Below are positions 19,584-64,000 of a stretch of DNA of 64,000 nt, one piece after another. The DNA comes from Escherichia coli (lineage in GTDB: Bacteria; Pseudomonadota; Gammaproteobacteria; Enterobacterales; Enterobacteriaceae): assembly GCF_003334355.1 (NCBI RefSeq), contig NZ_QOWP01000013.1. The stretch is one strand, 5' to 3'. The notes under the pieces are model-generated. The model saw only the letters and a list, made by a program, of their open reading frames with translations, did no database searches and was not told where the DNA came from. Every line of letters begins with the position of its first letter. Within the stretch, counting starts at the first letter, position 1. Position numbers and translations under genes: made by a program.

Positions 19584-21227
19584 TTAGCGAATGTTAATCA
19601 GCGCATCAAAAATCGCGTTTGCCGTCTGCAGAACCTGCGCATTCGCCAGGTAATACTGCTGAAAACGTTGCAGATTTCCGTACTCCTCATCGAGATTGAC
19701 ACCGGAAATCGACTGCTGCTGATTGGAAAGCTGCGTCACCACATTACCTTGCGTGGTGCTACTGGTTTTCAACGTCGCGGTTTTATTACCGATATCACTC
19801 ACTAACGAGGCATAAGCGTCGTTAAAGGATTTCGCACCGCCCACCGTTTTACTGTTGCTTTGCAGATCCAGCAGGGCCTGACCGTTGCGGTTGTCGCTAT
19901 CACCCGCATCTTCTTCGCTCGCCATCGCGATTTTCGCTTCGTCGGTGATTAATACATCCATGTTGACGATGGCGTCACTTACTGGTTTCAGCGTGAAGCT
20001 GTCGTTAACGGCAGGCGTTCCTGTAAACGTCAACTCCAGACCATCAAATGCCACTTTACCGTTGGCATCCAGCGTCACCGTAAAAGTGGTATTGCTGGCA
20101 AGGCGGGTGACCTGCCACTGATTATTATCGAACGAGATTTTGTAATCTGTCGCCAGTACCGCGGAGGCATCAGTTACCGTGGCACCGATCGCAACGTCAC
20201 CTTTGTTTTTCGTGTTTTGCAGAACCGCGGGCTTACCGATAGCAAAGAAATCTTCACCGGCATCGCCGTTAGCATCAAATCCGGCTTTGTGTTGGGTGTT
20301 GAAAGCCTCGGCAAATGCCAGCGCCAGTTGTCCAAGCGTATTACGCGTCTGGTCCAGATCCTGAGAACGGAATGTCAGAATGCCGCCCAGCGACCCGGTA
20401 TTCAGTAATTTCTCCGGGATCTCAATATTGCCTGCCGTCCCATCAACATAAGCGACAGTCGTACGAGAAGGGTCAGCGCTGGAAGGAACTGCCGCCAGTT
20501 GCCGCGCCGTACTTCCCTGAACCAGTGAGTAACCATTGGCCATCGTGATGTTATAAGTGCCGCCATCCTGAACGCTGACTTCTACACCAACAATCTGGTT
20601 TAATTCGCTCACCAGTTGATCGCGTTGATCCAGCAGATTGTTAGGTGACGCCCCTGCCCCCACGCCTGTCAGGCGCGAGATTTGATCGTTCAGGCTGGCA
20701 ATTTGTTTAGCGTAGTTGTTGATCTGATCAACGCTGGCACCTATCGCGATATTGACCTGTTTGTCCTGGTCGCGCAGATATTGATCGGTGGTTTTAAACT
20801 GATTCACCAATCCTTCTGATTTCCCAATCAGCGCCTGGCGCGCTGCCGGGTCTTCCGCGTTACTCACCAGCGTTTGCAGGCTGGTGAAGAAATCCTGCAT
20901 CTGTGTTGCCAGCGAAGAGGTACTGGTGGAGAGCATATTGTCGATTTTCGACATCTGCTCATAGCGGGCAGTCAGACCGCTACTTTGCGTCTGCGCCGCA
21001 CGTAACTGGTTGGTAATAAACGCATCATACTCACGCTGCACACCAGAATCGTAGACACCATTGCCAACCCAGCCGCCAGCGCCCAACGTGCTATTGGCCT
21101 GCGCCATAATAGTGGTTTGGCGGGTATATCCGGCAACGTTATAGCTGGAGATATTATTACTTGCCGTATTTAACGCCGCCTGGGCCGCGTTCAGTCCGCT
21201 CATGGCGTTATTAATCAAGCTGGACAT
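19584..21227 (-). CDS. flgK: Flagellar hook-associated protein 1
   Basis: 547-aa ORF with flagellar rod/hook N-terminal consensus (MSSLINNAMSGLNAAQ...). Confidence 0.95.
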   Translation of the reverse strand: MSSLINNAMSGLNAAQAALNTASNNISSYNVAGYTRQTTIMAQANSTLGAGGWVGNGVYDSGVQREYDAFITNQLRAAQTQSSGLTARYEQMSKIDNMLSTSTSSLATQMQDFFTSLQTLVSNAEDPAARQALIGKSEGLVNQFKTTDQYLRDQDKQVNIAIGASVDQINNYAKQIASLNDQISRLTGVGAGASPNNLLDQRDQLVSELNQIVGVEVSVQDGGTYNITMANGYSLVQGSTARQLAAVPSSADPSRTTVAYVDGTAGNIEIPEKLLNTGSLGGILTFRSQDLDQTRNTLGQLALAFAEAFNTQHKAGFDANGDAGEDFFAIGKPAVLQNTKNKGDVAIGATVTDASAVLATDYKISFDNNQWQVTRLASNTTFTVTLDANGKVAFDGLELTFTGTPAVNDSFTLKPVSDAIVNMDVLITDEAKIAMASEEDAGDSDNRNGQALLDLQSNSKTVGGAKSFNDAYASLVSDIGNKTATLKTSSTTQGNVVTQLSNQQQSISGVNLDEEYGNLQRFQQYYLANAQVLQTANAIFDALINIR

Positions 21228-21260
21228 GGAGGTTCCTTATAAGCCTTCAATTACAGAGTA

Positions 21261-21288
21261 TTATCGGCAGCGACCCGCCGGACTTGAG
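21261..21288 (-). promoter_or_regulatory. Candidate sigma-28 promoter for flgKL
   Basis: Minus strand reads TCAAGTCC-N11-GCCGATAA; the -10 element matches the sigma-28 consensus exactly, the -35 partially. Confidence 0.55.
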
Positions 21289-21292
21289 TTAT

Positions 21293-22234
21293 TCAGAACA
21301 GATTATCAATGTTCATACTGTAGGTTTTGCTCACCTTGTCGCTTATCGATTTCATCTGCTGAATCATGTTGGTGAGTTTGCGGGCATAGTGAGGATCGGT
21401 GGCATAGCCCGCGTCCTGTAGGGCCTGCGCCCCCTGTTCCGCACTCGCGGCGGTCGTCACGGCGGCGTAGCGCGGGTTACGCGTTAACAGCCCAACGTAA
21501 TCCGACAAGGCTTCCAGATACGAGCTGTAGACGCGAAACTTCGCTTTTACTTTCTTCGCTTCGCCGTTTTCATATTCAGTCGTGGTGATTTCAGTAACTG
21601 GCCCTTTCCAGTTGCCAGAGGCTTTGACACCAAACAGGTTATAGCTCGGCTCGCCGTTTTCGCGGCGGATTTGCCGTTGCCCCCAACCAGATTCCAGTGC
21701 CGCCTGAGCGAGGATCAAATGATGTGGCACACCGCTTTGCTGGCTTGCCAGTTGGGCGGGCAGCGAGAGTTGCGCGAGGAATGCTTTACTGTCACCCGGC
21801 AGCGAATCATCGTAGTTACGTGGCACGGCCTTTTGCACCAGCTGCGAAAGCGCCTGATTTTGATAACGCACCACAGTTTCGAGCGGGAATTTCATCGGTG
21901 CTGCTGGCGTGGACTCCTCTGGCAATGGTTGTTCTGGCGTCATCTGTTTAACCATCATCTCTGCAAGCCCCAGACCTTTGCCCGCCGTCATCTGTTGGGC
22001 AATCTGCTGGTCATACATACTGGTATACAGGCGAGTGTGCTCGCTGCTGAACAGGCCATCTTTTGGTAAAGCGTCGCGCATGCTTTTCAACATCATCTGC
22101 ACGAACATCCCTTCCACCTGACGGGCCACCGGACGGATATTTGCCGCCGGATCTTCGCCCGCTTTCGCCTTTAGTTCGTTGAGTGATTGCGCATCCCAGG
22201 CCGCACTTGCCAGTAGTTTGCTGTCGCTGATCAT
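21293..22234 (-). CDS. flgJ: Flagellar rod-assembly protein / peptidoglycan hydrolase
   Basis: Start placed at internal Met ([16 protein letters not shown]...) to give 313 aa; C-terminal muramidase domain. Confidence 0.9.
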   Translation of the reverse strand: MISDSKLLASAAWDAQSLNELKAKAGEDPAANIRPVARQVEGMFVQMMLKSMRDALPKDGLFSSEHTRLYTSMYDQQIAQQMTAGKGLGLAEMMVKQMTPEQPLPEESTPAAPMKFPLETVVRYQNQALSQLVQKAVPRNYDDSLPGDSKAFLAQLSLPAQLASQQSGVPHHLILAQAALESGWGQRQIRRENGEPSYNLFGVKASGNWKGPVTEITTTEYENGEAKKVKAKFRVYSSYLEALSDYVGLLTRNPRYAAVTTAASAEQGAQALQDAGYATDPHYARKLTNMIQQMKSISDKVSKTYSMNIDNLF

Positions 22235-23331
22235 CAGATGATTTCCAGTTTTGCCCGCAGACATCCCGCACTTTGCATTGATTGCAGTATGGACATCAGA
22301 TCCATCGGCGTAGCGCCCAGCGCATTGAGCGCGCGCACCACGTTATTGAGGCTGGCGCTGGAACGTACGCTTTGCAGCGAACCGCCGCTCTGGCGTAAAT
22401 CGATCTGCGTTTGTGGAGTAACCACAGTCTGTCCACCACCAAACGGTGTATCTGGCTGGCTGACATTGGCCTGACGATTAACTGTTACTGAGAGATTCCC
22501 CTGCGCTACCGCGCAGCTGTCGAGGGTCACTTCGCGATTCATCACCACCGAACCGGTGCGCGAGTTAATCACTACTTTAGCGTCCTGCGGGGTGACATTA
22601 ACCTGCATATTCTGAATATCGGCAAGGAAGCGGACCTGGGAACTGTTGCCACTCGGTACGCGCACCTGAATAGTCCGCGCATCTAACGCGGTGGCGCTGC
22701 CATATCCACGCACGCGGTTGATGGTGTCAGCGATTTGCTGCGCCATGCTGAAATCTTCGTCGTTAAGTTGCAAATTAAGGGTATTCCCGACGCCAAACTG
22801 GCTGGGCAATTCACGTTCAATAACCGCACCATTGGTGATCCGTCCACCGTTCAGTTGGTTAACCTGAACACTGCTACCGCCAGCGGAGGCTCCTGCGCCG
22901 CCAACCAGAATATTGCCCTGCGCCAGCGCATACACCTGACTGTCAACGCCCTTAAGCGGTGTCATCAACAACGTACCTCCACGCAAGCTTTTGGCATTTC
23001 CCATGGAAGAAACCACCACATCGATGGTTTGCCCCTGACGTCCAAACGGAGGAAGTGACGCTGTCACCATTACCGCAGCGACGTTTTTTAGCTGCATATT
23101 GGTGCCCGTCGGAACGGTAATTCCCAGCTGTGAGAGCATGTTATTAAGCGTTTGTGTGGTAAACGGCGTCTGTGTTGTCTGGTCACCGGTGCCATCCAGC
23201 CCCACCACCAGACCATAGCCAATCAGTGAGTTTTGCCTTACCCCCTGAACACTGGTGAGATCGCGAATACGCTCAGCCTGAGCCGCCGTCGTGACCAGTA
23301 GAAGAATTAATGCAGAGAGAAATTTAATCAC
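22234..23331 (-). CDS. flgI: Flagellar P-ring protein
   Basis: ORF with signal peptide ([18 protein letters not shown]); start taken at the second GTG of the frame to give the expected 365 aa. Confidence 0.92.
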
Positions 23332-23342
23332 CACAGCCTCAC

Positions 23343-24041
23343 TTACATTGGCGACAGGTTAAGGAAGAAACGCTGCAACCAGCCCATATTTTGCGCTTCG
23401 TTAATGTAGCCATTGCCTACGTATTCAATGCGCGCATCCGCCACCTGAGTAGACGGTACGGTATTGCTGCCGCTGATAGTGCGTGGATTAACCACGCCAG
23501 AGAAGCGAATAAATTCGGTACCCTGATTAATGGCAATCTGTTTTTCACCCACCACATGCAGGTTGCCGTTGACCAGTACCTGGTCAACCGTCACCGTCAA
23601 CGTGCCGCTAAAGGTATTGCTGGCATTGGCCCCGCCCTTTCCGTTGAACGTGTTACCACCGGAGGCTTCGACATCGGCACGAGCGTTACCAAACAGCCCC
23701 TGCAAATAGCGCGGCACAGTATCAAAGCCAAAATTAGTTTTACCGTCACGGCTGGCATTCGCAGAGGAGCTTTTGCTGGCGCTGACGTTCTCCTGCAACA
23801 CGATGGTCAGCGTATCGCCAATATTGCGTGGTCGACGATCTTCAAACAGCGGTTGATAGCCATAGTTAATCGGCTGAGCAGACTGGAAAATAGAACCGTT
23901 GGCGACGGGCGTCGGACCGGGAACCGGTTGTGCACTGGTCGCCCCCTGCACCAGCGGCGTGGAGGGTATCCAGGCGCAGCCGGTTAGTGAAAGCACCAAC
24001 AAGCTGGAAATGGCATAAGTATGCGCAGCGTTTTTTTGCAT
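23343..24041 (-). CDS. flgH: Flagellar L-ring lipoprotein
   Basis: Start placed at internal Met to give 232 aa; lipobox LTGC in the signal peptide. Confidence 0.92.
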
Positions 24042-24093
24042 GGCTATCATCTTCAAAAATCAGTAAACCGGTGAACCTGCCACCGGTTAAGCC

Positions 24094-24894
<801 letters not shown>

Positions 24895-24920
24895 TTAGTG
24901 ACAAAGTGCATATGTCTTCT

Positions 24921-24956
<36 letters not shown>

Positions 24957-25047
24957 AGTGCTCGCAAAATCGATAAATTGCGATTGCCCCCATAGACCCG
25001 ATAAACTTGCGCATCGGGCAACTTATACTTGTCATGTATCCTTTCAA

Positions 25048-25803
25048 TTAACTCATCGACAGCAGTTGGTTGGCACGGCCTGCGTTATCATCGACGCTGC
25101 TGATCACCTTCATCTGCATTTCAAAACGCCGCGCGCTGGCAATCATGTCGCTCATTGCCGCAACGGCATTGACGTTACTGCCTTCCAGAACCCCCGACAT
25201 CACACGCAAGGTTGGATCTGCCTGCAGTACCGGCCCACGCGTGGCCTGGGTTTCTGCGCTTAAACGAAAAATGCCGTCGTCACCGCGCTGCACTTCGCTG
25301 CCCGTGGCTTTCACCAGTTTAAGACGCCCTACTGGCGCAACCGTATTTGCCGGATCGCCCGGATTGAGCGCCGAGATTGTGCCATCGGCAGCAATAGTGA
25401 TTTCCGCCCCTTCCGGCACAGCAATTGGCCCAGCCTCGCCTATCACCGGATGCCCCTGAATTGTCAGTTGCCCGGTGGGATCAACCTGAATGCTGCCATT
25501 ACGCGTATACCCTTCGCTGCCGTCAGCGGACTGCACGGCCAGCCAGCCATCCTGCTGCAACGCAACGTCCAGCGGGCGCGAGGTGTAATCCATCTTGCCG
25601 GGCGTCATGTCTGCACCCGGTGTTGACGCCGTTACCAGCGTGCGCGTGGGCAGTGAAAGCCCTTCCACCGGCACTGCACGCAAGGCGTTTAACTGCGCGC
25701 GAAAACCGGGCGTAGAGGCATTGGCCAGATTACTGGCGGTTACCGCCTGTTGATTCAGCGTCTGGCTGGCTGCTCCCATCGCGGTATAAATTGCGTGATC
25801 CAT
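25048..25803 (-). CDS. flgF: Flagellar proximal rod protein
   Basis: 251-aa rod-family ORF. Confidence 0.94.
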   Translation of the reverse strand: MDHAIYTAMGAASQTLNQQAVTASNLANASTPGFRAQLNALRAVPVEGLSLPTRTLVTASTPGADMTPGKMDYTSRPLDVALQQDGWLAVQSADGSEGYTRNGSIQVDPTGQLTIQGHPVIGEAGPIAVPEGAEITIAADGTISALNPGDPANTVAPVGRLKLVKATGSEVQRGDDGIFRLSAETQATRGPVLQADPTLRVMSGVLEGSNVNAVAAMSDMIASARRFEMQMKVISSVDDNAGRANQLLSMS

Positions 25804-25822
25804 TGAGCTATCCCGTCAGCGA

Positions 25823-40559: not shown

Positions 40560-41126
40560 ATGTCATTCACAAATACCCCTGAACGCTATGGTGTTATATC
40601 TGCGGCCTTCCATTGGCTAAGCGCAATTATTGTCTACGGCATGTTTGCTTTAGGTCTGTGGATGGTCACGCTCAGTTATTACGATGGCTGGTATCACAAA
40701 GCACCCGAACTGCATAAAAGCATCGGTATTTTGTTAATGATGGGGCTGGTTATTCGCGTTCTGTGGCGTGTCATATCTCCACCGCCGGGTCCGCTGCCGA
40801 GTTATTCGCCCATGACTCGTCTTGCCGCAAGAGCTGGACATCTCGCATTGTACCTATTGCTTTTCGCCATCGGCATCAGCGGCTATCTGATCTCAACTGC
40901 CGATGGTAAACCGATCAGCGTTTTTGGCTGGTTTGACGTCCCCGCGACCCTTGCCGACGCTGGCGCACAGGCAGACTTTGCCGGTGCCCTGCATTTTTGG
41001 CTCGCGTGGAGCGTCGTAGTACTGTCCGTTATGCACGGATTTATGGCCCTGAAGCATCATTTCATCGATAAAGACGACACTCTGAAGCGCATGCTGGGAA
41101 AGTCGTCATCTGACTATGGAGTATAA
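40560..41126 (+). CDS. yceJ: Cytochrome b561-family membrane protein
   Basis: Start placed at internal Met (MSFTNTPERYG...) to give 188 aa; four predicted TM helices with conserved His. Confidence 0.88.
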   Translation: MSFTNTPERYGVISAAFHWLSAIIVYGMFALGLWMVTLSYYDGWYHKAPELHKSIGILLMMGLVIRVLWRVISPPPGPLPSYSPMTRLAARAGHLALYLLLFAIGISGYLISTADGKPISVFGWFDVPATLADAGAQADFAGALHFWLAWSVVVLSVMHGFMALKHHFIDKDDTLKRMLGKSSSDYGV

Positions 41127-41129
41127 AAA

Positions 41130-41705
41130 ATGAAAAAAAGCCTGCTTGGTTTAACCTTCGCGTCCCTGATGTTCTCTGCCGGTTCAGCGGTTGCCGCCGA
41201 TTACAAAATTGACAAAGAAGGTCAGCACGCCTTTGTTAATTTCCGCATCCAGCACCTTGGCTATAGCTGGTTATACGGCACCTTTAAAGATTTCGACGGT
41301 ACTTTTACCTTTGACGAAAAAAATCCGGCTGCCGATAAAGTGAATGTGACAATTAACACCACCAGCGTCGATACTAATCACGCCGAACGCGATAAACATC
41401 TTCGCAGTGCAGATTTCCTCAATACCGCAAAATATCCACAGGCAACATTCACCTCCACCAGCGTGAAGAAAGACGGTGACGAACTGGATATTACCGGCGA
41501 TCTGACGCTGAATGGCGTAACCAAACCCGTCACGCTGGAAGCGAAATTAATTGGTCAGGGCGACGACCCATGGGGTGGTAAACGTGCAGGCTTCGAGGCC
41601 GAAGGCAAAATTAAGCTCAAGGACTTCAATATCAAGACAGATTTAGGTCCAGCTTCTCAGGAAGTGGATCTGATTATTTCAGTGGAAGGCGTACAGCAGA
41701 AGTAA
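41130..41705 (+). CDS. yceI: Periplasmic YceI-family polyisoprenoid-binding protein
   Basis: 191-aa ORF with signal peptide, 3 nt after the yceJ stop. Confidence 0.93.
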
Positions 41706-41715
41706 GCGTGAAATG

Positions 41716-41740
41716 TTGCCGGATGGCACGCATCCGGCAA
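41716..41740. terminator. REP-like palindrome / bidirectional terminator between yceI and yceA
   Basis: ttgccggatg-gcacg-catccggcaa inverted repeat. Confidence 0.6.
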
Positions 41741-41746
41741 TGATAT

Positions 41747-42799
41747 TTATTCTGTTGGATCAGGAATGCACAGTGTTGTATTCAGACGTCCACGAGACTT
41801 ATTAAAGATCTTATTGCCATTTTCACGTCCTGCCCGACGGCGTCGCTGTTCTTCTGGCGGTAACGCGCTTTCTTCGCAGCAAATCTCACTACAACAACCT
41901 TTGTATTTTTCCGCGCATACTGGACACTGAATAAACAGCAGGTGGCAGCCATCATTTTTACAGTTGGTATGGCTGTCGCACGGCGCGCCGCACTGGTGGC
42001 AATGCGCGATAATCTCATCCGATATACGTTCGCCCATCCGCTCGTCAAAAACAAAATTTTTGCCAATAAAACGCACCGGCAAGCCCTGCTCGCGCGCCTT
42101 ACGGGCGTATTCAATAATTCCGCCCTCGATATGCCAGACTTTGTTGAATCCGTTATGTTTCATCCAGGCACTGGCCTTTTCACAACGAATGCCGCCGGTG
42201 CAGTACATGACGATTTTTTTATCTTTATGTGCCTGCATCATCTCGACTGCTTTTGGCAGCTGCTCACGGAAGGTATCTGCCGGAATTTCGAGCGCGTTTT
42301 CAAAGTGCCCCACTTCATACTCATAGTGGTTACGCATGTCGATAAATAGTGCATCGGGATCGTCAAGCATGGCGTTCACTTCCGCCGCTTGCAGATACTC
42401 ACCAACATTGCTGGCATCAAAGTGAGGATCGTCAATACCGTCGGCAACAATGCGATCGCGTACCTTCATGCGCAGTACCCAGAAGGATTTCCCGTCATCA
42501 TCCAACGCGATATTCAGGCGTAAACCCTCTAAAGCCGGGTCGAAGGCATAGAGCTGCGCGCGAAATGTTTCAACATTGCTCGCAGGTACGCTGATTTGCG
42601 CGTTAATGCCCTCATGCGCCAGATACACTCGCCCAAAAACATTCAGCGCGGTAAACAGCTGATATAAAGCGTCACGGGTCGCCTTAGGATCGGCGATGTG
42701 GAAATACTTGTAAAACGAAATGGTGGTTCGCGGTTCGCTCTCAGCCAACATTTTGGCTTTTAGCGCGTCGTTGGAAATGCGGTTGTGTAACACTGGCAT
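41747..42799 (-). CDS. yceA: Rhodanese-domain tRNA uridine(34) hydroxylase
   Basis: Start placed at internal Met ([17 protein letters not shown]...) to give 350 aa; rhodanese active-site Cys ([10 protein letters not shown]) and C-terminal Cys cluster. Confidence 0.88.
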
Positions 42800-56409: not shown

Positions 56410-57060
<651 letters not shown>

Positions 57061-57064
57061 AGCC

Positions 57065-57454
57065 ATGAAACGTTATTTACGCTGGATTGTGGCGGCAGAA
57101 TTTCTGTTCGCCGCAGGGAATCTTCACGCCGTTGAGGTAGAAGTCCCGGGATTGCTAACTGACCATACTGTTTCATCTATTGGCCATGATTTTTACCGAG
57201 CCTTTAGTGATAAATGGGAAAGTGACTATACGGGTAACTTAACGATTAATGAAAGGCCCAGTGCACGATGGGGAAGCTGGATCACTATAACGGTCAATCA
57301 GGACGTTATTTTCCAGACTTTTTTATTTCCGTTGAAAAGAGACTTCGAGAAAACTGTCGTCTTTGCACTGATTCAAACTGAAGAAGCACTAAATCGTCGC
57401 CAGATAAATCAGGCGTTATTAAGTACGGGCGATTTGGCGCATGATGAATTCTAA
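57065..57454 (+). CDS. csgE: Curli secretion specificity factor
   Basis: 129-aa ORF with signal peptide. Confidence 0.94.
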
Positions 57455-57478
57455 ATAAAAAATTGTTCGGAGGCTGCA

Positions 57479-57895
57479 ATGCGTGTCAAACATGCAGTAG
57501 TTCTACTCATGCTTATTTCGCCATTAAGTTGGGCTGGAACCATGACTTTCCAGTTCCGTAATCCAAACTTTGGTGGTAACCCAAATAATGGCGCTTTTTT
57601 ATTAAATAGCGCTCAGGCCCAAAACTCTTATAAAGATCCGAGCTATAACGATGACTTTGGTATTGAAACACCCTCAGCGTTAGATAACTTTACTCAGGCC
57701 ATCCAGTCACAAATTTTAGGTGGGCTACTGTCGAATATTAATACCGGTAAACCGGGCCGCATGGTGACCAACGATTATATTGTCGATATTGCCAACCGCG
57801 ATGGTCAATTGCAGTTGAACGTGACAGATCGTAAAACCGGACAAACCTCGACCATCCAGGTTTCGGGTTTACAAAATAACTCAACCGATTTTTAA
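57479..57895 (+). CDS. csgF: Curli nucleation/assembly component
   Basis: 138-aa ORF with signal peptide. Confidence 0.94.
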
Positions 57896-57921
57896 GCCCC
57901 AGCTTCATAAGGAAAATAATC

Positions 57922-58755
57922 ATGCAGCGCTTATTTCTTTTGGTTGCCGTCATGTTACTGAGCGGATGCTTAACCGCCCCGCCTAAAGAAGCCGCCAGAC
58001 CGACATTAATGCCTCGTGCTCAGAGCTACAAAGATTTGACCCATCTGCCAGCGCCGACGGGTAAAATCTTTGTTTCGGTATACAACATTCAGGACGAAAC
58101 CGGGCAATTTAAACCCTACCCGGCAAGTAACTTCTCCACTGCTGTTCCGCAAAGCGCCACGGCAATGCTGGTCACGGCACTGAAAGATTTTCGCTGGTTT
58201 ATACCGCTGGAGCGCCAGGGCTTACAAAACCTGCTTAACGAGCGCAAGATTATTCGTGCGGCACAAGAAAACGGCACGGTTGCCATTAATAACCGAATCC
58301 CGCTGCAATCTTTAACGGCGGCAAATATCATGGTTGAAGGTTCGATTATCGGTTATGAAAGCAACGTCAAATCTGGCGGGGTTGGGGCAAGATATTTTGG
58401 CATCGGTGCCGACACGCAATACCAGCTCGATCAGATTGCCGTGAACCTGCGCGTCGTCAATGTGAGTACCGGCGAGATCCTTTCTTCGGTGAACACCAGT
58501 AAGACGATACTTTCCTATGAAGTTCAGGCCGGGGTTTTCCGCTTTATTGACTACCAGCGCTTGCTTGAAGGGGAAGTGGGTTACACCTCGAACGAACCTG
58601 TTATGCTGTGCCTGATGTCGGCTATCGAAACAGGGGTCATTTTCCTGATTAATGATGGTATCGACCGTGGTCTGTGGGATTTGCAAAATAAAGCAGAACG
58701 GCAGAATGACATTCTGGTGAAATACCGCCATATGTCGGTTCCACCGGAATCCTGA
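57922..58755 (+). CDS. csgG: Curli outer-membrane secretion channel lipoprotein
   Basis: 277-aa ORF with lipobox LLSGC. Confidence 0.96.
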   Translation: MQRLFLLVAVMLLSGCLTAPPKEAARPTLMPRAQSYKDLTHLPAPTGKIFVSVYNIQDETGQFKPYPASNFSTAVPQSATAMLVTALKDFRWFIPLERQGLQNLLNERKIIRAAQENGTVAINNRIPLQSLTAANIMVEGSIIGYESNVKSGGVGARYFGIGADTQYQLDQIAVNLRVVNVSTGEILSSVNTSKTILSYEVQAGVFRFIDYQRLLEGEVGYTSNEPVMLCLMSAIETGVIFLINDGIDRGLWDLQNKAERQNDILVKYRHMSVPPES

Positions 58756-58760
58756 CAGAT

Positions 58761-58790
58761 AAAAAAGCCGGAATTATCATCCGGCATTTT
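58761..58790. terminator. Bidirectional terminator between convergent csgG and ycdZ
   Basis: aaaaaagccgga-attatcat-ccggcatttt. Confidence 0.7.
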
Positions 58791-58818
58791 ACTGTTTAAG
58801 CGAAAGCGTGAGTGCCCC

Positions 58819-59310
58819 TCACGCTTTATTTTTGATTTCCTGCTCACGGTGCGCCGTCTTTGCACTACGCGCCGCCAGCCACAGGCCACTGTTTTTCATT
58901 GCGTAACCAAATATCAGCCCAAGCGCCAGCGAAGGTAACACCAGTTTCCAGTCACCCTGCCCGGCAAACGTCGCGCATGCGCCTATAAACGTCCCCGGAA
59001 CAAATGAAAGCAGCAGCTGTTTGGCCTGAATACACATCAGAAACGCGACAATACCGGTTATGACATAACCGAGAATTTCCAGATGTGGTGCCAGTGCACT
59101 ACCGTAAATAATGACCATCGCCCACACCACGCCACTAAGCAGGGTTGCAGCGGAGATCGCCAGCCCTTTCAGCCCACCTTGCGGGCAGGCAAAGTAGGCC
59201 GTACAGCCCAGGAAGCCCGCCCAGCTTAGTAAGCCCAGGGAAACAGCCACCCATCCCCAGATACCGGAGAGAATGCCTGTTGTGATTGCAATAGAGAGAA
59301 GTATGTTCAT
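58819..59310 (-). CDS. ycdZ: DUF1097 inner-membrane protein
   Basis: Start placed at internal Met (MNILLSIAITTGILS...) to give 163 aa. Confidence 0.85.
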   Translation of the reverse strand: MNILLSIAITTGILSGIWGWVAVSLGLLSWAGFLGCTAYFACPQGGLKGLAISAATLLSGVVWAMVIIYGSALAPHLEILGYVITGIVAFLMCIQAKQLLLSFVPGTFIGACATFAGQGDWKLVLPSLALGLIFGYAMKNSGLWLAARSAKTAHREQEIKNKA

Positions 59311-59411
59311 GCCGCGCATGATAGCAGAAAACGCGGCCATGAATGAGATCGAGCACACATTTTATGCAACAACAAATTATCCGTTGCAGTTATGAGTGAC
59401 GTAGATCACAC

Positions 59412-59966
59412 TTATTCTTCAGAATCTTCTTCCAGCTCGTCCCACATTGCACTAATGGCATCGCGGGTTAGCGGTGCCATGGTGCGCCAGAAAGGCGTGG
59501 TTGCATGGGCCTCCACTTTGCCAAGGAACGCACCACACCAGGGTAACAGATACTCACTGAACAGTGTTTCCAGTGCTTCGCTCTCATCTTCCGTTGACTG
59601 ATCTTCCAGCCAGGAAGCCGCAAGCAGCAATGTGCCGATGTGATCGGCTGGCGTATCCGCCAGTGGCATCCCTCGTTCGGAAAGAAAAGCGCGCACTTCC
59701 GCTTCCGTTGCGTCCTCAACCCATGCGCTACGATATGGCGGCACGGCACATTCATCGCCGATAAACAACGCATTGTAATCGGCAGAGACTTGCGCCATAT
59801 CACAGCTTTTCTGTAAACGCGTCAGTAACTCATCCTGCTCCAGTGGCCAGTTCGCAGCCAGTTTCCCCTCACGAATCAGGGTAAACAGCGGCACCAGTAA
59901 AGGATCTTGCGGTTGGCGGTAATAGAGCGAACCCAGCACACGACAGAGGATAGAAAACTCGTTCAT
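59412..59966 (-). CDS. ycdY: TorD-family redox-enzyme maturation chaperone
   Basis: 184-aa ORF. Confidence 0.9.
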   Translation of the reverse strand: MNEFSILCRVLGSLYYRQPQDPLLVPLFTLIREGKLAANWPLEQDELLTRLQKSCDMAQVSADYNALFIGDECAVPPYRSAWVEDATEAEVRAFLSERGMPLADTPADHIGTLLLAASWLEDQSTEDESEALETLFSEYLLPWCGAFLGKVEAHATTPFWRTMAPLTRDAISAMWDELEEDSEE

Positions 59967-59989
59967 TAATATATTTCCATTACTAGTAA

Positions 59990-60727
59990 TTAAAGGTCTG
60001 CAAATTCCGCAATCGGTGCCATACCGCGAGATTCAAGGAAGTTCAGTAAGCGGCGCGGAGAAACATTCAAAATGCGCTCTGGCGGAAAATCTACCGCGTC
60101 GAGGATTTTAAGACACTCTTCAAATTCCCCCATGGTAAACGCGGTGTGAGAATCCGAGCCTAATGCCACCCAACCTCCAGCATCACGTACCGCTGCGGCT
60201 ACCGCACGACAGTTGTCTTCACTGCCCTTACGTGAGTGTAAAAATGAAGAATTATTGATTTCCAGCGCCACCTGATGTTTCGCGGCTGCTTCAGCAACGG
60301 CTTTCACATCTATTTCATATTTGGGATTTCCGGGATGGCTTATTATATGCACATTGCCGCTGGCGATAGTGGCGATCATCGCTTGTGTATTGGTCGCTTT
60401 GTCATGTGGTGCAAAAACCGGCTCATGAAAACCGGCAATAATCAGATCCAGCGAGTCAAACATTTTACCGCTGCAATCAATTTCACCATCAACATTTTTA
60501 ATGTTAGCTTCGATGCCGCGCAGGATCCCTACCCCATCAACCACTCGCGGCCAGATACGCATGTTAATGAAGTGCCAGTGATGCGGAGCATCTTCCATAT
60601 CCGGGCCATGATCGGTGATCGCAAAAAGTTTAATGCCCTTTTGTTTGGCCTGGGCAATGTAATCACTCAATGTGCTATATGCATGTGTGCTGGCAACGGT
60701 ATGCATATGAAGGTCGACGGGATACAT
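59990..60727 (-). CDS. ycdX: PHP-family zinc phosphatase
   Basis: 245-aa ORF with N-terminal HxH metal-binding motif (DLHMHTVAS). Confidence 0.92.
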
Positions 60728-60781
60728 AACTCTCTCCTGTATTCAATTCCCGCCAAGGATAGCAGGAATCCTGATGCTTTA

Positions 60782-61759
<978 letters not shown>

Positions 61760-61953
61760 TTATCGTTATGATCTACAAAAGCCACCAGCATAACAAATCC
61801 GTGGTCGGTGGCAAAAAAAGCAGATTTCGCTTATTAAAACTGCATATTGATTGAAGTTTGAATAAACGCGCGATTTTTTAAAAAAGTTTGTTGACCTCAG
61901 GTCATGATTTCCCTAAATTAGCGCCCGTTCCAGCAAGACAGGAACGACAATTT

Positions 61954-62041
61954 GGTGAGGTGTCCGAGTGGCTGAAGGAGCACGCCTGGAAAGTGTGTAT
62001 ACGGCAACGTATCGGGGGTTCGAATCCCCCCCTCACCGCCA
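61954..62041 (+). tRNA. serX: tRNA-Ser (long variable arm, anticodon GGA)
   Basis: 88-nt sequence GGTGAGGTGTCCGAGTGGCTGAAGGAGCACGCCTGGAAAGTGTGTATACGGCAACGTATCGGGGGTTCGAATCCCCCCCTCACCGCCA with 7-bp acceptor stem, T-arm GGGGG-TTCGAATC-CCCCC and encoded CCA. Confidence 0.95.
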
Positions 62042-62465
62042 TATTTAAAAAAAAGCCCGTACGAAAGTACGGGCTTTTTTTTCGTATATTGCACACACCG
62101 GGGGGGATGAGAAGCCCCGACCGGGGGTCGACAACTGGCGACAGCCAGTTGGACAGACCGTGAACGCAGTGAGCGGGCTGCCCGCAGGGCGAGCGAAGCG
62201 AGTCAATCCCCCCCTCACCGCCATATTTAAAGAAGAGCTCGTACGAAAGTACGGGCTTTTTTTTCGTATATTGCACACACCGGGGGGATGAGAAGCCCCG
62301 ACCGGGGTTCGACAACTGGCGACAGCCAGTTGGACAGACCGTGAACGCAGTGAGCGGGCTGCCCGCAGGGCGAGCGAAGCGAGTCAATCCCCCCCTCACC
62401 GCCATATTTAAAGAAGAGCTCGTACGAAAGTACGGGCTTTTTTTTCGTATATTGCACACACCGGG
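62023..62465 (+). repeat. Tandem direct repeat (~181-182 bp period, about 2.4 copies), each copy beginning with the last 19 nt of tRNA-Ser
   Basis: aatccccccctcaccgcca occurs at 62023, 62205 and 62386; each is followed by a near-identical terminator hairpin and structured spacer; copies differ by a few substitutions and a 1-nt G-run length change. Confidence 0.9.
62047..62082 (+). terminator. Symmetric rho-independent terminator after serX
   Basis: aaaaaaaa-gcccgtac-gaaa-gtacgggc-tttttttt perfect hairpin with A/T runs on both sides. Confidence 0.85.
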
Positions 62466-62596
62466 TGCCCCCGCCCACGTCTGTTAGGGCGAGGGGAAAT
62501 CGTGCACATCAACTGTCTGGTTACTCAGTCAACAATCAAAATGCGCAAGAGAGTACAGAACATATATGTATTATCTGGTCACTTCCTATCACTTCC

Positions 62597-63583
62597 TCAC
62601 TTATTAAAATGCCCCCAACGGAAATACATGTCACATGCCATCATAAAATCGTTATGCCAGAGGAATCGACAATAGAAAAAATAGTAAATTAAGCACGGTA
62701 CATAGCAGAGTAAAAAATAGGCTTCAAACCAAATCCGCCATTCCACAAGCGTTGCCAATACCGACACCAGCGTAATCCACATCACTTCAATAACCAGCAA
62801 TATGAATAACCGAAGCCAAAGCGGCTTGGCAAAAAAGGTCGACAACGCATTTTCACTGGAGAAAAACAGATCGATTTCCTGCAAAAAAAGCCTGCCCAGA
62901 AAAGCGTACCGCTTGGAGAAGCGCAGAAAAAACAGATTAATCGCCAACACTACGCCACAAAGAATGAGCAATGCAATTATCGATTTAAACGTTAACCACT
63001 GCCCCTCTGTCACAAAAGAATCACTGTTACGCAACGGGCTGATAGTAAGCAGGTTAACAACCGTTGAGATGCACACCGAAAGCAGCACATAGCGAGTCAG
63101 ACTTTTATATTTTACTTTTTTCGCTACTGAAATAGCGACCTGCTTGACATAACTGGTGCGGATCATCCGAAACAGCAGAAAGATGACCAACGGCCCAAGT
63201 AACGAAATCAGGAACAGCGCATATAACGAGGGTAGAAGCTGGTATAGCCCCCAACTCATTGCACTCAACATGATTAACGACAGAAATCCTGCCACCAGAG
63301 GTTGTGTAAGAAATAATTCTATTTTGTGGTTCTGCTTTTTCTTAAACCACGAAAAATCGATATTCTTCGTGACGCATTTATAAGCCCAGTACGCCTTGAG
63401 ATCAAAAATAAAATTATACAGCACCAGAGCCAGAATCCCACTAACTACACCAATATCCTCTGATGGAAAAGTAAACCCTGCATTCTTCTAATAAAAGCCT
63501 ATCAGAATAAGTCCAATAGCATAAATGTATATCAGATTTCGTTTATCCTGAAAGCGAATAAAAGTTAAATAATCAGGAATCAT
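62597..63583 (-). pseudogene. ycdU: ycdU-like polytopic inner-membrane protein ORF, 329 codons, interrupted by an in-frame TAG at codon 32
   Basis: ATG at 63583 and stop at 62597 span 987 nt in one frame; the only interruption is TAG at 63488-63490; downstream 275-codon ORF (track 62597..63424) is in the same frame. Confidence 0.6.
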
Positions 63584-63923
63584 TTGAATACCTTTGCATC
63601 ACTAAATGCTTTACGACAATGCATAACTCGTTGCTGATCCACGCCAGCAAAATCATTTAACATATTCCCCAAATAGGGCTTATTACTTATTTCAAGGAAA
63701 GCTACCGGGGTTGGCATATTCAGAAATGTATCGAGAGATTCAGTCCATTTCACCGTATGAGTTAAGTGTAATGAGAGATTTTCTTTGATAATTGACGGAG
63801 CGACCTCGCTTTTTGCTGTTACGTTCATCAGAACCTGATGCTCTGGCGAAGCGATATCCAGTCCGGCAAGATAATCGCGCATTGCCTGAACGCCGTCTTC
63901 CATCAAACGCGTGTGCCAGGCAC
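63580..63923 (-). pseudogene. ymdE: C-terminal fragment of a FabD-like acyltransferase, 5' end truncated by the IS element
   Basis: Translated frame aligns with the C-terminal third of FabD in this window (e.g. VKWTESL vs VQWTKSV); frame runs up to the IS3 inverted repeat; stop TGA overlaps the ycdU ATG (ATGA). Confidence 0.6.
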
Positions 63924-64000
63924 TGATCTTACCCAGCAATAGTGGACACGCGGCTAAGTGAGTAAACTCTCAGTCAGAGGTGACTCACATGACAAAAACA
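63924..64000 (+). mobile_element. insE: Left end of an IS3-family insertion sequence (terminal inverted repeat and first 4 codons of orfA), continues beyond the window
   Basis: Begins TGATCTTACCCAGCAATAGTGGACACGCGGCTAAGTGAG, which I recognise as the IS3 left inverted repeat, followed by ATGACAAAAACA (MTKT) as in the IS3 orfA start. Confidence 0.7.

Follow-up and report, generated by a model that had tools for sequence, protein, structure and literature searches.

We report that the ycdU gene carried by a 64,000-nucleotide stretch of Escherichia coli DNA (‘the window’ hereafter, with positions counted from its first letter) contains a premature amber codon, TAG, where the tryptophan codon TGG would be expected at codon 32. 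We consider it very probable that a G:C to A:T transition arose here spontaneously and recently, that the result is a null allele of an already orphaned gene, and that the allele is private to a single isolate or to a very small clone. The event is of a known kind, real but biologically ordinary; classical amber mutations of the TGG to TAG type likewise arise when one G:C to A:T transition alters the second base of a tryptophan codon, and there is no mechanistic distinction to be drawn between them and the change described here.

Read on the minus strand, the frame from the ATG at 63583 to the TGA at 62597 spans 329 codons, comprising the initiating methionine and 30 further sense codons, the stop at codon 32, another 296 sense codons and the terminal stop; translation bears out the coordinates and counts of the original prediction, in which this frame had been described as interrupted by one internal TAG. 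That prediction had also placed a 31-codon and a 275-codon piece in the same frame, and the list of open reading frames (ORFs) agrees that they share it, but as many as 296 sense codons lie open after the TAG, the figure of 275 being a count that starts at the GTG of codon 54. The altered base itself is position 63489, which is T on the plus strand where relatives have C, such that the coding strand changes from TGG to TAG through a G to A substitution at gene position 95. A chance open frame is ruled out, because identity to annotated ycdU is 99.9% over the 987 bases, with just the one mismatch; the gene has a GC content of 40.5%, as against 50.6% for the window.

Comparison with individual alleles serves to isolate the lesion. 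Against strain 510016 (NZ_CP025851.1; WP_000611859.1) all 987 of 987 bases align without insertion or deletion, and the mismatch at gene position 95 is the only one; a K-12-type genome adds to the codon-32 difference a single synonymous one at position 840. The ycdU of O157:H7 strain EC4115 is more distant (14 differing positions, 98.6% DNA identity) and, compared with it, the gene shows nine synonymous and four non-synonymous differences, a distribution consistent with ycdU having formerly been under purifying selection. Codon 32 is TGG in 510016, the K-12-type strain, O157 EC4115 and the natural strain E41, and indeed in every allele examined, in keeping with the expectation that TGG, CAG or another sense codon would be found there. 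RefSeq annotates a 328-amino-acid YcdU from the same ATG in the intact alleles examined, so that the circumstance under which the TAG could have been dismissed, namely reference alleles that carry it and are annotated with a shorter protein, does not apply; a downstream start as the normal gene structure was rejected on the same grounds. The earlier suggestion of a recent nonsense mutation, as opposed to an old pseudogene, also stands, since over 987 bp nothing but the TAG separates the gene from its closest intact counterpart, and there is no second lesion.

The nearest well-described counterpart is ycdU of K-12 (b1029, a putative inner-membrane protein, WP_000611859.1), which occupies the same locus, in the order dgcT - IS3 - ymdE' - ycdU - rtT repeats - serX - ghrA, uses the same ATG with the same ATGA overlap with ymdE, and differs from the gene described here at 1-2 of 987 bases; its codon 32 is TGG and its product 328 amino acids long, whereas the window has TAG and a predicted product of 31. 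In both sequence and position (near-identity over the full length; overlap with ymdE; proximity to serX and ghrA) the gene belongs with the ycdU family, but it lacks the unbroken frame of about 328-333 codons that members possess. It shows one disabling change, which is absent from relatives and from the wider population, as befits a single-lesion pseudogene, and within the family it ranks as a pseudogene allele and not among the functional members.

The codon-32 allele is equally isolated at the level of the species. Matches to ycdU were found in 2663 of 5426 complete RefSeq E. coli genomes, the full-length matches listed being 97.9-99.9% identical, and in 2608 of the 2663 genomes carrying the gene the match extends over at least 80% of it. 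A 31-mer centred on the TAG was found in none of the 5426 complete genomes (megablast, E up to 10, for which a seed is possible only when the central base matches); this null result is meaningful, because the corresponding TGG 31-mer, run with identical settings as a positive control, matched 1527 genomes. A TAG-centred 61-mer matched 2595 complete E. coli genomes, none of them at 100% identity, and the TAG 31-mer had no exact match among JGI metagenome contigs. The mutation can be called recent because it is the sole lesion of the gene and is common to no complete genome.

The genomic background in which the allele sits is that of a natural isolate. Positions 39001-64000 find their best identity, 99.9%, with natural phylogroup-A-like isolates, and the whole window is colinear with E41 at 99.77% identity (134 mismatches, 10 gap openings); 35 single-nucleotide polymorphisms (SNPs) against E41 fall in the last 25 kb, of which only those at 61065 and 63489 lie within the final 5.8 kb. 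When the 69 annotated coding sequences (CDS) of E41 were mapped onto the window, ycdU was the sole gene with a premature stop, and no in-frame stop of any kind was found in the other 68. A mutagenised or laboratory strain was considered and ruled out, as the 134 differences from the nearest complete genome lie in recombination-like clusters, as they do in natural isolates.

The residue lost is one that the family has largely conserved. Of 38 full-length homologues that were aligned, with identities as low as 35%, 34 have Trp at position 32, three have Val and one has Gly; the position falls within the motif GFYWKN, of which N34 is invariant, as are P3, Y5, R10 and Q12 upstream. In the AlphaFold model of YcdU (pLDDT 88.2, pTM 0.85) residues 5-34 make up the first long helix. 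Family and structure searches returned no NCBIfam model, no real Pfam family and no solved structural relative for YcdU, which has been described as an uncharacterised inner-membrane protein with eight transmembrane segments (Goldstone et al., PMC4951805). The homologues, in 114 source-named clusters, come exclusively from Enterobacterales (Escherichia, Mixta, Enterobacter, Kosakonia, Klebsiella, Pantoea and Izhakiella) except for one labelled Vagococcus, and YcdU is, on this distribution, an uncharacterised family restricted to Enterobacterales. One ycdU-like sequence, P0024 (Logan assembly, 224 amino acids), shares 83% identity and shows numerous replacements of the L-to-F, S-to-F and A-to-V types, a pattern that suggests either C-to-T hypermutation or a low-quality assembly.

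Where the surrounding genes are complete, ycdU has company. In O157:H7 EC4115 it ends a run of genes on the same strand (19744-34537 of the retrieved stretch), which opens with acpS, an SDR protein, a FabZ-like dehydratase, an acyl carrier protein (ACP), an aminomethyltransferase-family protein, a double ketosynthase and a further ketosynthase, and continues through a hypothetical protein, an ABC ATPase, a second hypothetical protein, an ABC permease, a LolA-like lipoprotein-sorting protein and a 462-amino-acid hypothetical protein to ymdE and finally ycdU. This run matches the biosynthetic portion of O-island 47 (OI-47), a 31.7-kb island extending from z1528 to z1556 (PMC8565820). The order from the double ketosynthase to ycdU is kept in Klebsiella and Kosakonia contigs, for which positions 1-11000, including 10 kb of upstream flank, were retrieved, even though YcdU itself is only 40-47% identical; because gene order persists across genera at that level of divergence, YcdU can be taken as a dedicated component, and the tail gene, of a conserved cluster for fatty-acid/polyketide-like biosynthesis and export. 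No description of the product of this cluster was found in the literature. Further details of the cluster in Klebsiella, Kosakonia and Escherichia include an ABC/MacB-type transporter, a LolA-like TP_0789 protein and an Acyl_transf_1 malonyltransferase before YcdU, which comes last in every case.

In the OI-47-type cluster of O157:H7, as in Klebsiella and Kosakonia, the orthologous YcdU lies directly downstream of the malonyltransferase gene, and the same is true here; there, however, the whole cluster is present and ycdU intact, whereas the window retains only the tail of ymdE and a nonsense-mutated ycdU. The arrangement IS3-ymdE'-ycdU is common to K-12, 510016 and E41, and in relatives ymdE is annotated by RefSeq as ‘incomplete; missing N-terminus’. 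Decay of the operon, through truncation of ymdE by IS3 and loss of the upstream cluster, took place long ago and has left ycdU orphaned. The TGA of ymdE overlaps the ATG of ycdU as ATGA, an overlap that suggests translational coupling of ycdU to ymdE, which is now itself a fragment.

Bringing these observations together, we propose that a spontaneous G:C to A:T transition at 63489 turned the Trp32 codon of ycdU into an amber codon within the lineage of one natural isolate (GenBank draft GCA_003334355.1). Ambers of the TGG to TAG type give termination dependent on release factor 1 (RF1), and RF1 would here be expected to end translation from the ATG at 63583 after 31 residues. The 296 sense codons downstream would be left with no efficient restart site (on direct reading of the sequence, in-frame ATG codons are lacking upstream of codon 104), and the codon-32 allele is most likely null. 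We suggest that its loss was tolerated since ycdU, normally the last gene of a conserved cluster of about 10-15, was already an orphan in this lineage, IS3 having removed everything upstream of codon ~200 of ymdE in K-12-like phylogroup-A strains; orphaning is probably the reason that the mutation could persist, and its loss may be regarded as presumptively neutral.

The codon-32 amber is far from the only lesion to have struck ycdU. For QOWP01000013.1, the GenBank contig that matches the end of the window, the gene caller of a public collection gave only a 163-amino-acid C-terminal ORF; 262 blocks of the collection index exactly this product, and 137 index the 275-amino-acid remnant. Ten loci with the 163-amino-acid remnant were sampled and showed 1-bp deletions at 332 and 463, 1-bp insertions at 470 and 477, a 38-bp duplication (458-495), a 5' deletion to 309, and IS1-associated truncations at 151 and 484. 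Ten loci with the 275-amino-acid remnant showed an IS3-family insertion at 96-100, IS1 insertions at about 102, 73-79 and 11, a 1-bp insertion at 44, a Y5 to stop change (TAT to TAA) in two contigs, and several truncations at contig ends. Altogether there are about 15 distinct, independent lesions over the 20 sampled loci, none of which has the codon-32 amber, and three clusters of frameshifted YcdU proteins (P0011, P0013 and P0014; 89-171 member sequences) stand among the homologues. Long-read errors may account for some of the single-base indels in A-runs, but not for the IS insertions and deletions seen in complete genomes. Evidently, ycdU has been lost repeatedly in E. coli, and null alleles are frequent in the species. 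These other natural nulls (the Y5 stop, A-run frameshifts, IS1 and IS3 insertions, 5' deletions) inactivate the same orphan gene independently and in near-identical sequence, but differ from the codon-32 amber in position and mechanism. The nearest is the IS3-family insertion of OZ039695.1, which has a 5-bp target duplication (ycdU 96-100) and sits just 3' of the base altered in the window, one to five bases away; this closeness is probably coincidental.

This record of recurrent loss could be read as the signature of selection, with inactivation of the costly orphan being advantageous, for instance by sparing the cell a useless polytopic membrane protein, and ycdU a hotspot of convergent adaptive nulls in lineages without the cluster, the W32 stop included. 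Such a reading would refine, and not replace, the explanation that we favour, and the tally of lesions, together with the abundance of the two remnants, speaks for it. Set against this, a full-length match was obtained in most complete genomes with ycdU (2608 of 2663), some of the 1-bp indels in A-runs may be errors of long-read assembly, and in one niche it is retention, not loss, that has been documented (Goldstone et al., PMC4951805); on balance, we regard selected loss as rather unlikely.

The same study bears on tolerated loss as well, and it is here that the points which tell against our favoured explanation should be gathered. The ymdE-ycdU pair was present in 98.5% of mastitis-associated phylogroup-A genomes, compared with about 80-82% of phylogroup A overall, and was considered to be robustly retained in the mastitis-associated strains, in which it may retain function (Goldstone et al., PMC4951805); retention of this kind speaks against the loss being wholly neutral, at least in some niches. 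Loss of function is, moreover, something that we infer for a protein with neither an assigned function nor a family, and an assembly or base-calling error, while unlikely, is possible for a change judged from assembled sequence alone.

An error of this type would mean that the true codon is TGG and that the A is a mistake in the draft consensus. It gains some credence from the fact that the allele is read directly in one public assembly only (GCA_003334355.1) and in no complete genome. The GenBank contig in that assembly, QOWP01000013.1, matches window positions 56782-64000, the stretch compared (7219 bp), at 100%, TAG included, and stops at the same point as the window, inside IS3; the window thus appears to be part of this public draft. 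The identical contig is listed for two samples, and one further place, similar over a 1.9-kb flank, shares most of the neighbouring gene calls and may or may not carry the TAG; a search of the literature for the assembly accession returned nothing. QOWP01000013.1 breaks at IS3. The rare GhrA allele of the window occurs on 11 contigs, with SRR3823860, SRR25039421/23/24 and GCA_014464935.1 among the samples that share it, and two of the four long contigs end in the 181-bp repeats before ycdU: breaks at such places are the pattern of short-read assembly, in which consensus substitution errors are very rare. Furthermore, the altered base sits outside homopolymers, Dam motifs and Dcm motifs, and the assembly is not generally error-prone, since the other 68 CDS are undisrupted. 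We infer that the change is a true mutation, and consider a consensus artefact to be very unlikely.

It might also be argued that full-length YcdU is still made, through an amber-suppressor transfer RNA (tRNA) or efficient read-through, and the perfectly intact remainder of the ycdU frame would be in accord with this; an intact frame is, however, equally expected of a very recent mutation. Programmed recoding would predict that the stop recurs, but it is seen at codon 32 in none of the 38 aligned homologues and in no other allele checked. The only tRNA in the 64-kb window is Ser(GGA), in-frame ambers are absent from the other genes of the window, and the source is natural-looking, about 0.2% diverged from wild strains, unlike supE/supF strains. 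We find continued synthesis of the full-length protein scarcely credible. A recoded or suppressor strain with widespread ambers was likewise rejected, given that tRNA complement and the 68 uninterrupted CDS.

Finally, the TAG would be of no consequence if the normal or functional product were a shortened protein of 275 amino acids from the GTG at codon 54, an ORF that does exist and whose exact product gene finders have called on many contigs; those calls are remnants, because every sampled contig with one either has an upstream lesion (an IS, a frameshift or the Y5 stop) or starts or ends within the 5' end of the gene. No clear Shine-Dalgarno-like sequence precedes GTG 54 on direct reading of the sequence, the N-terminal 34 residues hold five invariant positions as well as predicted helix 1, and a restart at codon 54 would, going by the structural model, lose that helix, part of helix 2 and the invariant N-terminal residues; the 275-codon ORF is probably not translated, and we attach next to no probability to a functional short form.

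The locus should, in this assembly, be labelled as a ycdU pseudogene (internal stop, W32 to stop) and not as ‘hypothetical proteins’ of 31 plus 275 or 163 amino acids, a kind of split that one gene caller made. The mutation is of little consequence beyond annotation; its wider context is mildly useful, as the repeated knock-out of orphan ycdU in K-12-like strains tempers the view of ymdE-ycdU as a maintained fitness determinant. The coordinates of the gene and of its neighbours are collected in Table 1.

Table 1. Features at and around the ycdU locus of the window, with the evidence for each.
Feature	Position	Strand	Evidence
Premature amber TAG at ycdU codon 32 (Trp32 to stop)	63488..63490	-	Direct reading, translation, alignments
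ycdU full-length frame, 329 codons including the terminal stop; single-lesion pseudogene	62597..63583	-	99.9% identity to WP_000611859.1
Residual N-terminal ORF, 31 codons plus TAG; most of predicted helix 1	63488..63583	-	ORF list, AlphaFold model
Downstream ORF, 275 codons, with GTG (codon 54) as first in-frame start; mechanical ORF	62597..63424	-	ORF list
ymdE 3' remnant (ACP S-malonyltransferase, about the last 114 codons)	63580..63923	-	Homology to intact O157 ymdE from 63923, codon ~200 of 313
IS3 left end, truncating ymdE; the window ends inside it	63924..64000	+	Colinearity with E41 to the IS3 transposase start; break in O157 homology
serX tRNA-Ser(GGA), island-integration tRNA bounding the ycdU side of the locus; no suppressor	61954..62041	+	tRNA analysis

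On the far side of ycdU from IS3, a 181-bp unit is present in 2.4 tandem copies after serX (98% match; 61954-62465 with serX, plus strand), within which Rfam RtT (RF00391) is matched at 62268-62404; the repetitive ORF translations near serX arise because of these tandem 181-bp units. Copy number varies by strain, ycdU and ghrA being 876 bp apart both in the window and in 510016, and 1060 bp apart in the K-12-type genome.

Elsewhere in the window, two tracts depart from the close similarity to E41. In flgF-flgE (25048-27028, minus strand) flgE has 42 mismatches together with in-frame indels and flgF has 18, as compared with 0-7 mismatches in the genes from ptsG to flgG, 1-3 in flgD, flgC and flgB, and nine in flgA, which lies slightly farther along. 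The pattern resembles a recombination tract imported into the hook genes of the flagellum. Seventeen SNPs crowd together over yceJ, yceI and trhO (40787-42538), as against about one SNP per kb or fewer elsewhere, and probably mark another such tract. Comparable pseudogenes are also to be found nearby in relatives, with fhuE frameshifted in E41 and a fimbrial usher gene frameshifted in O157.
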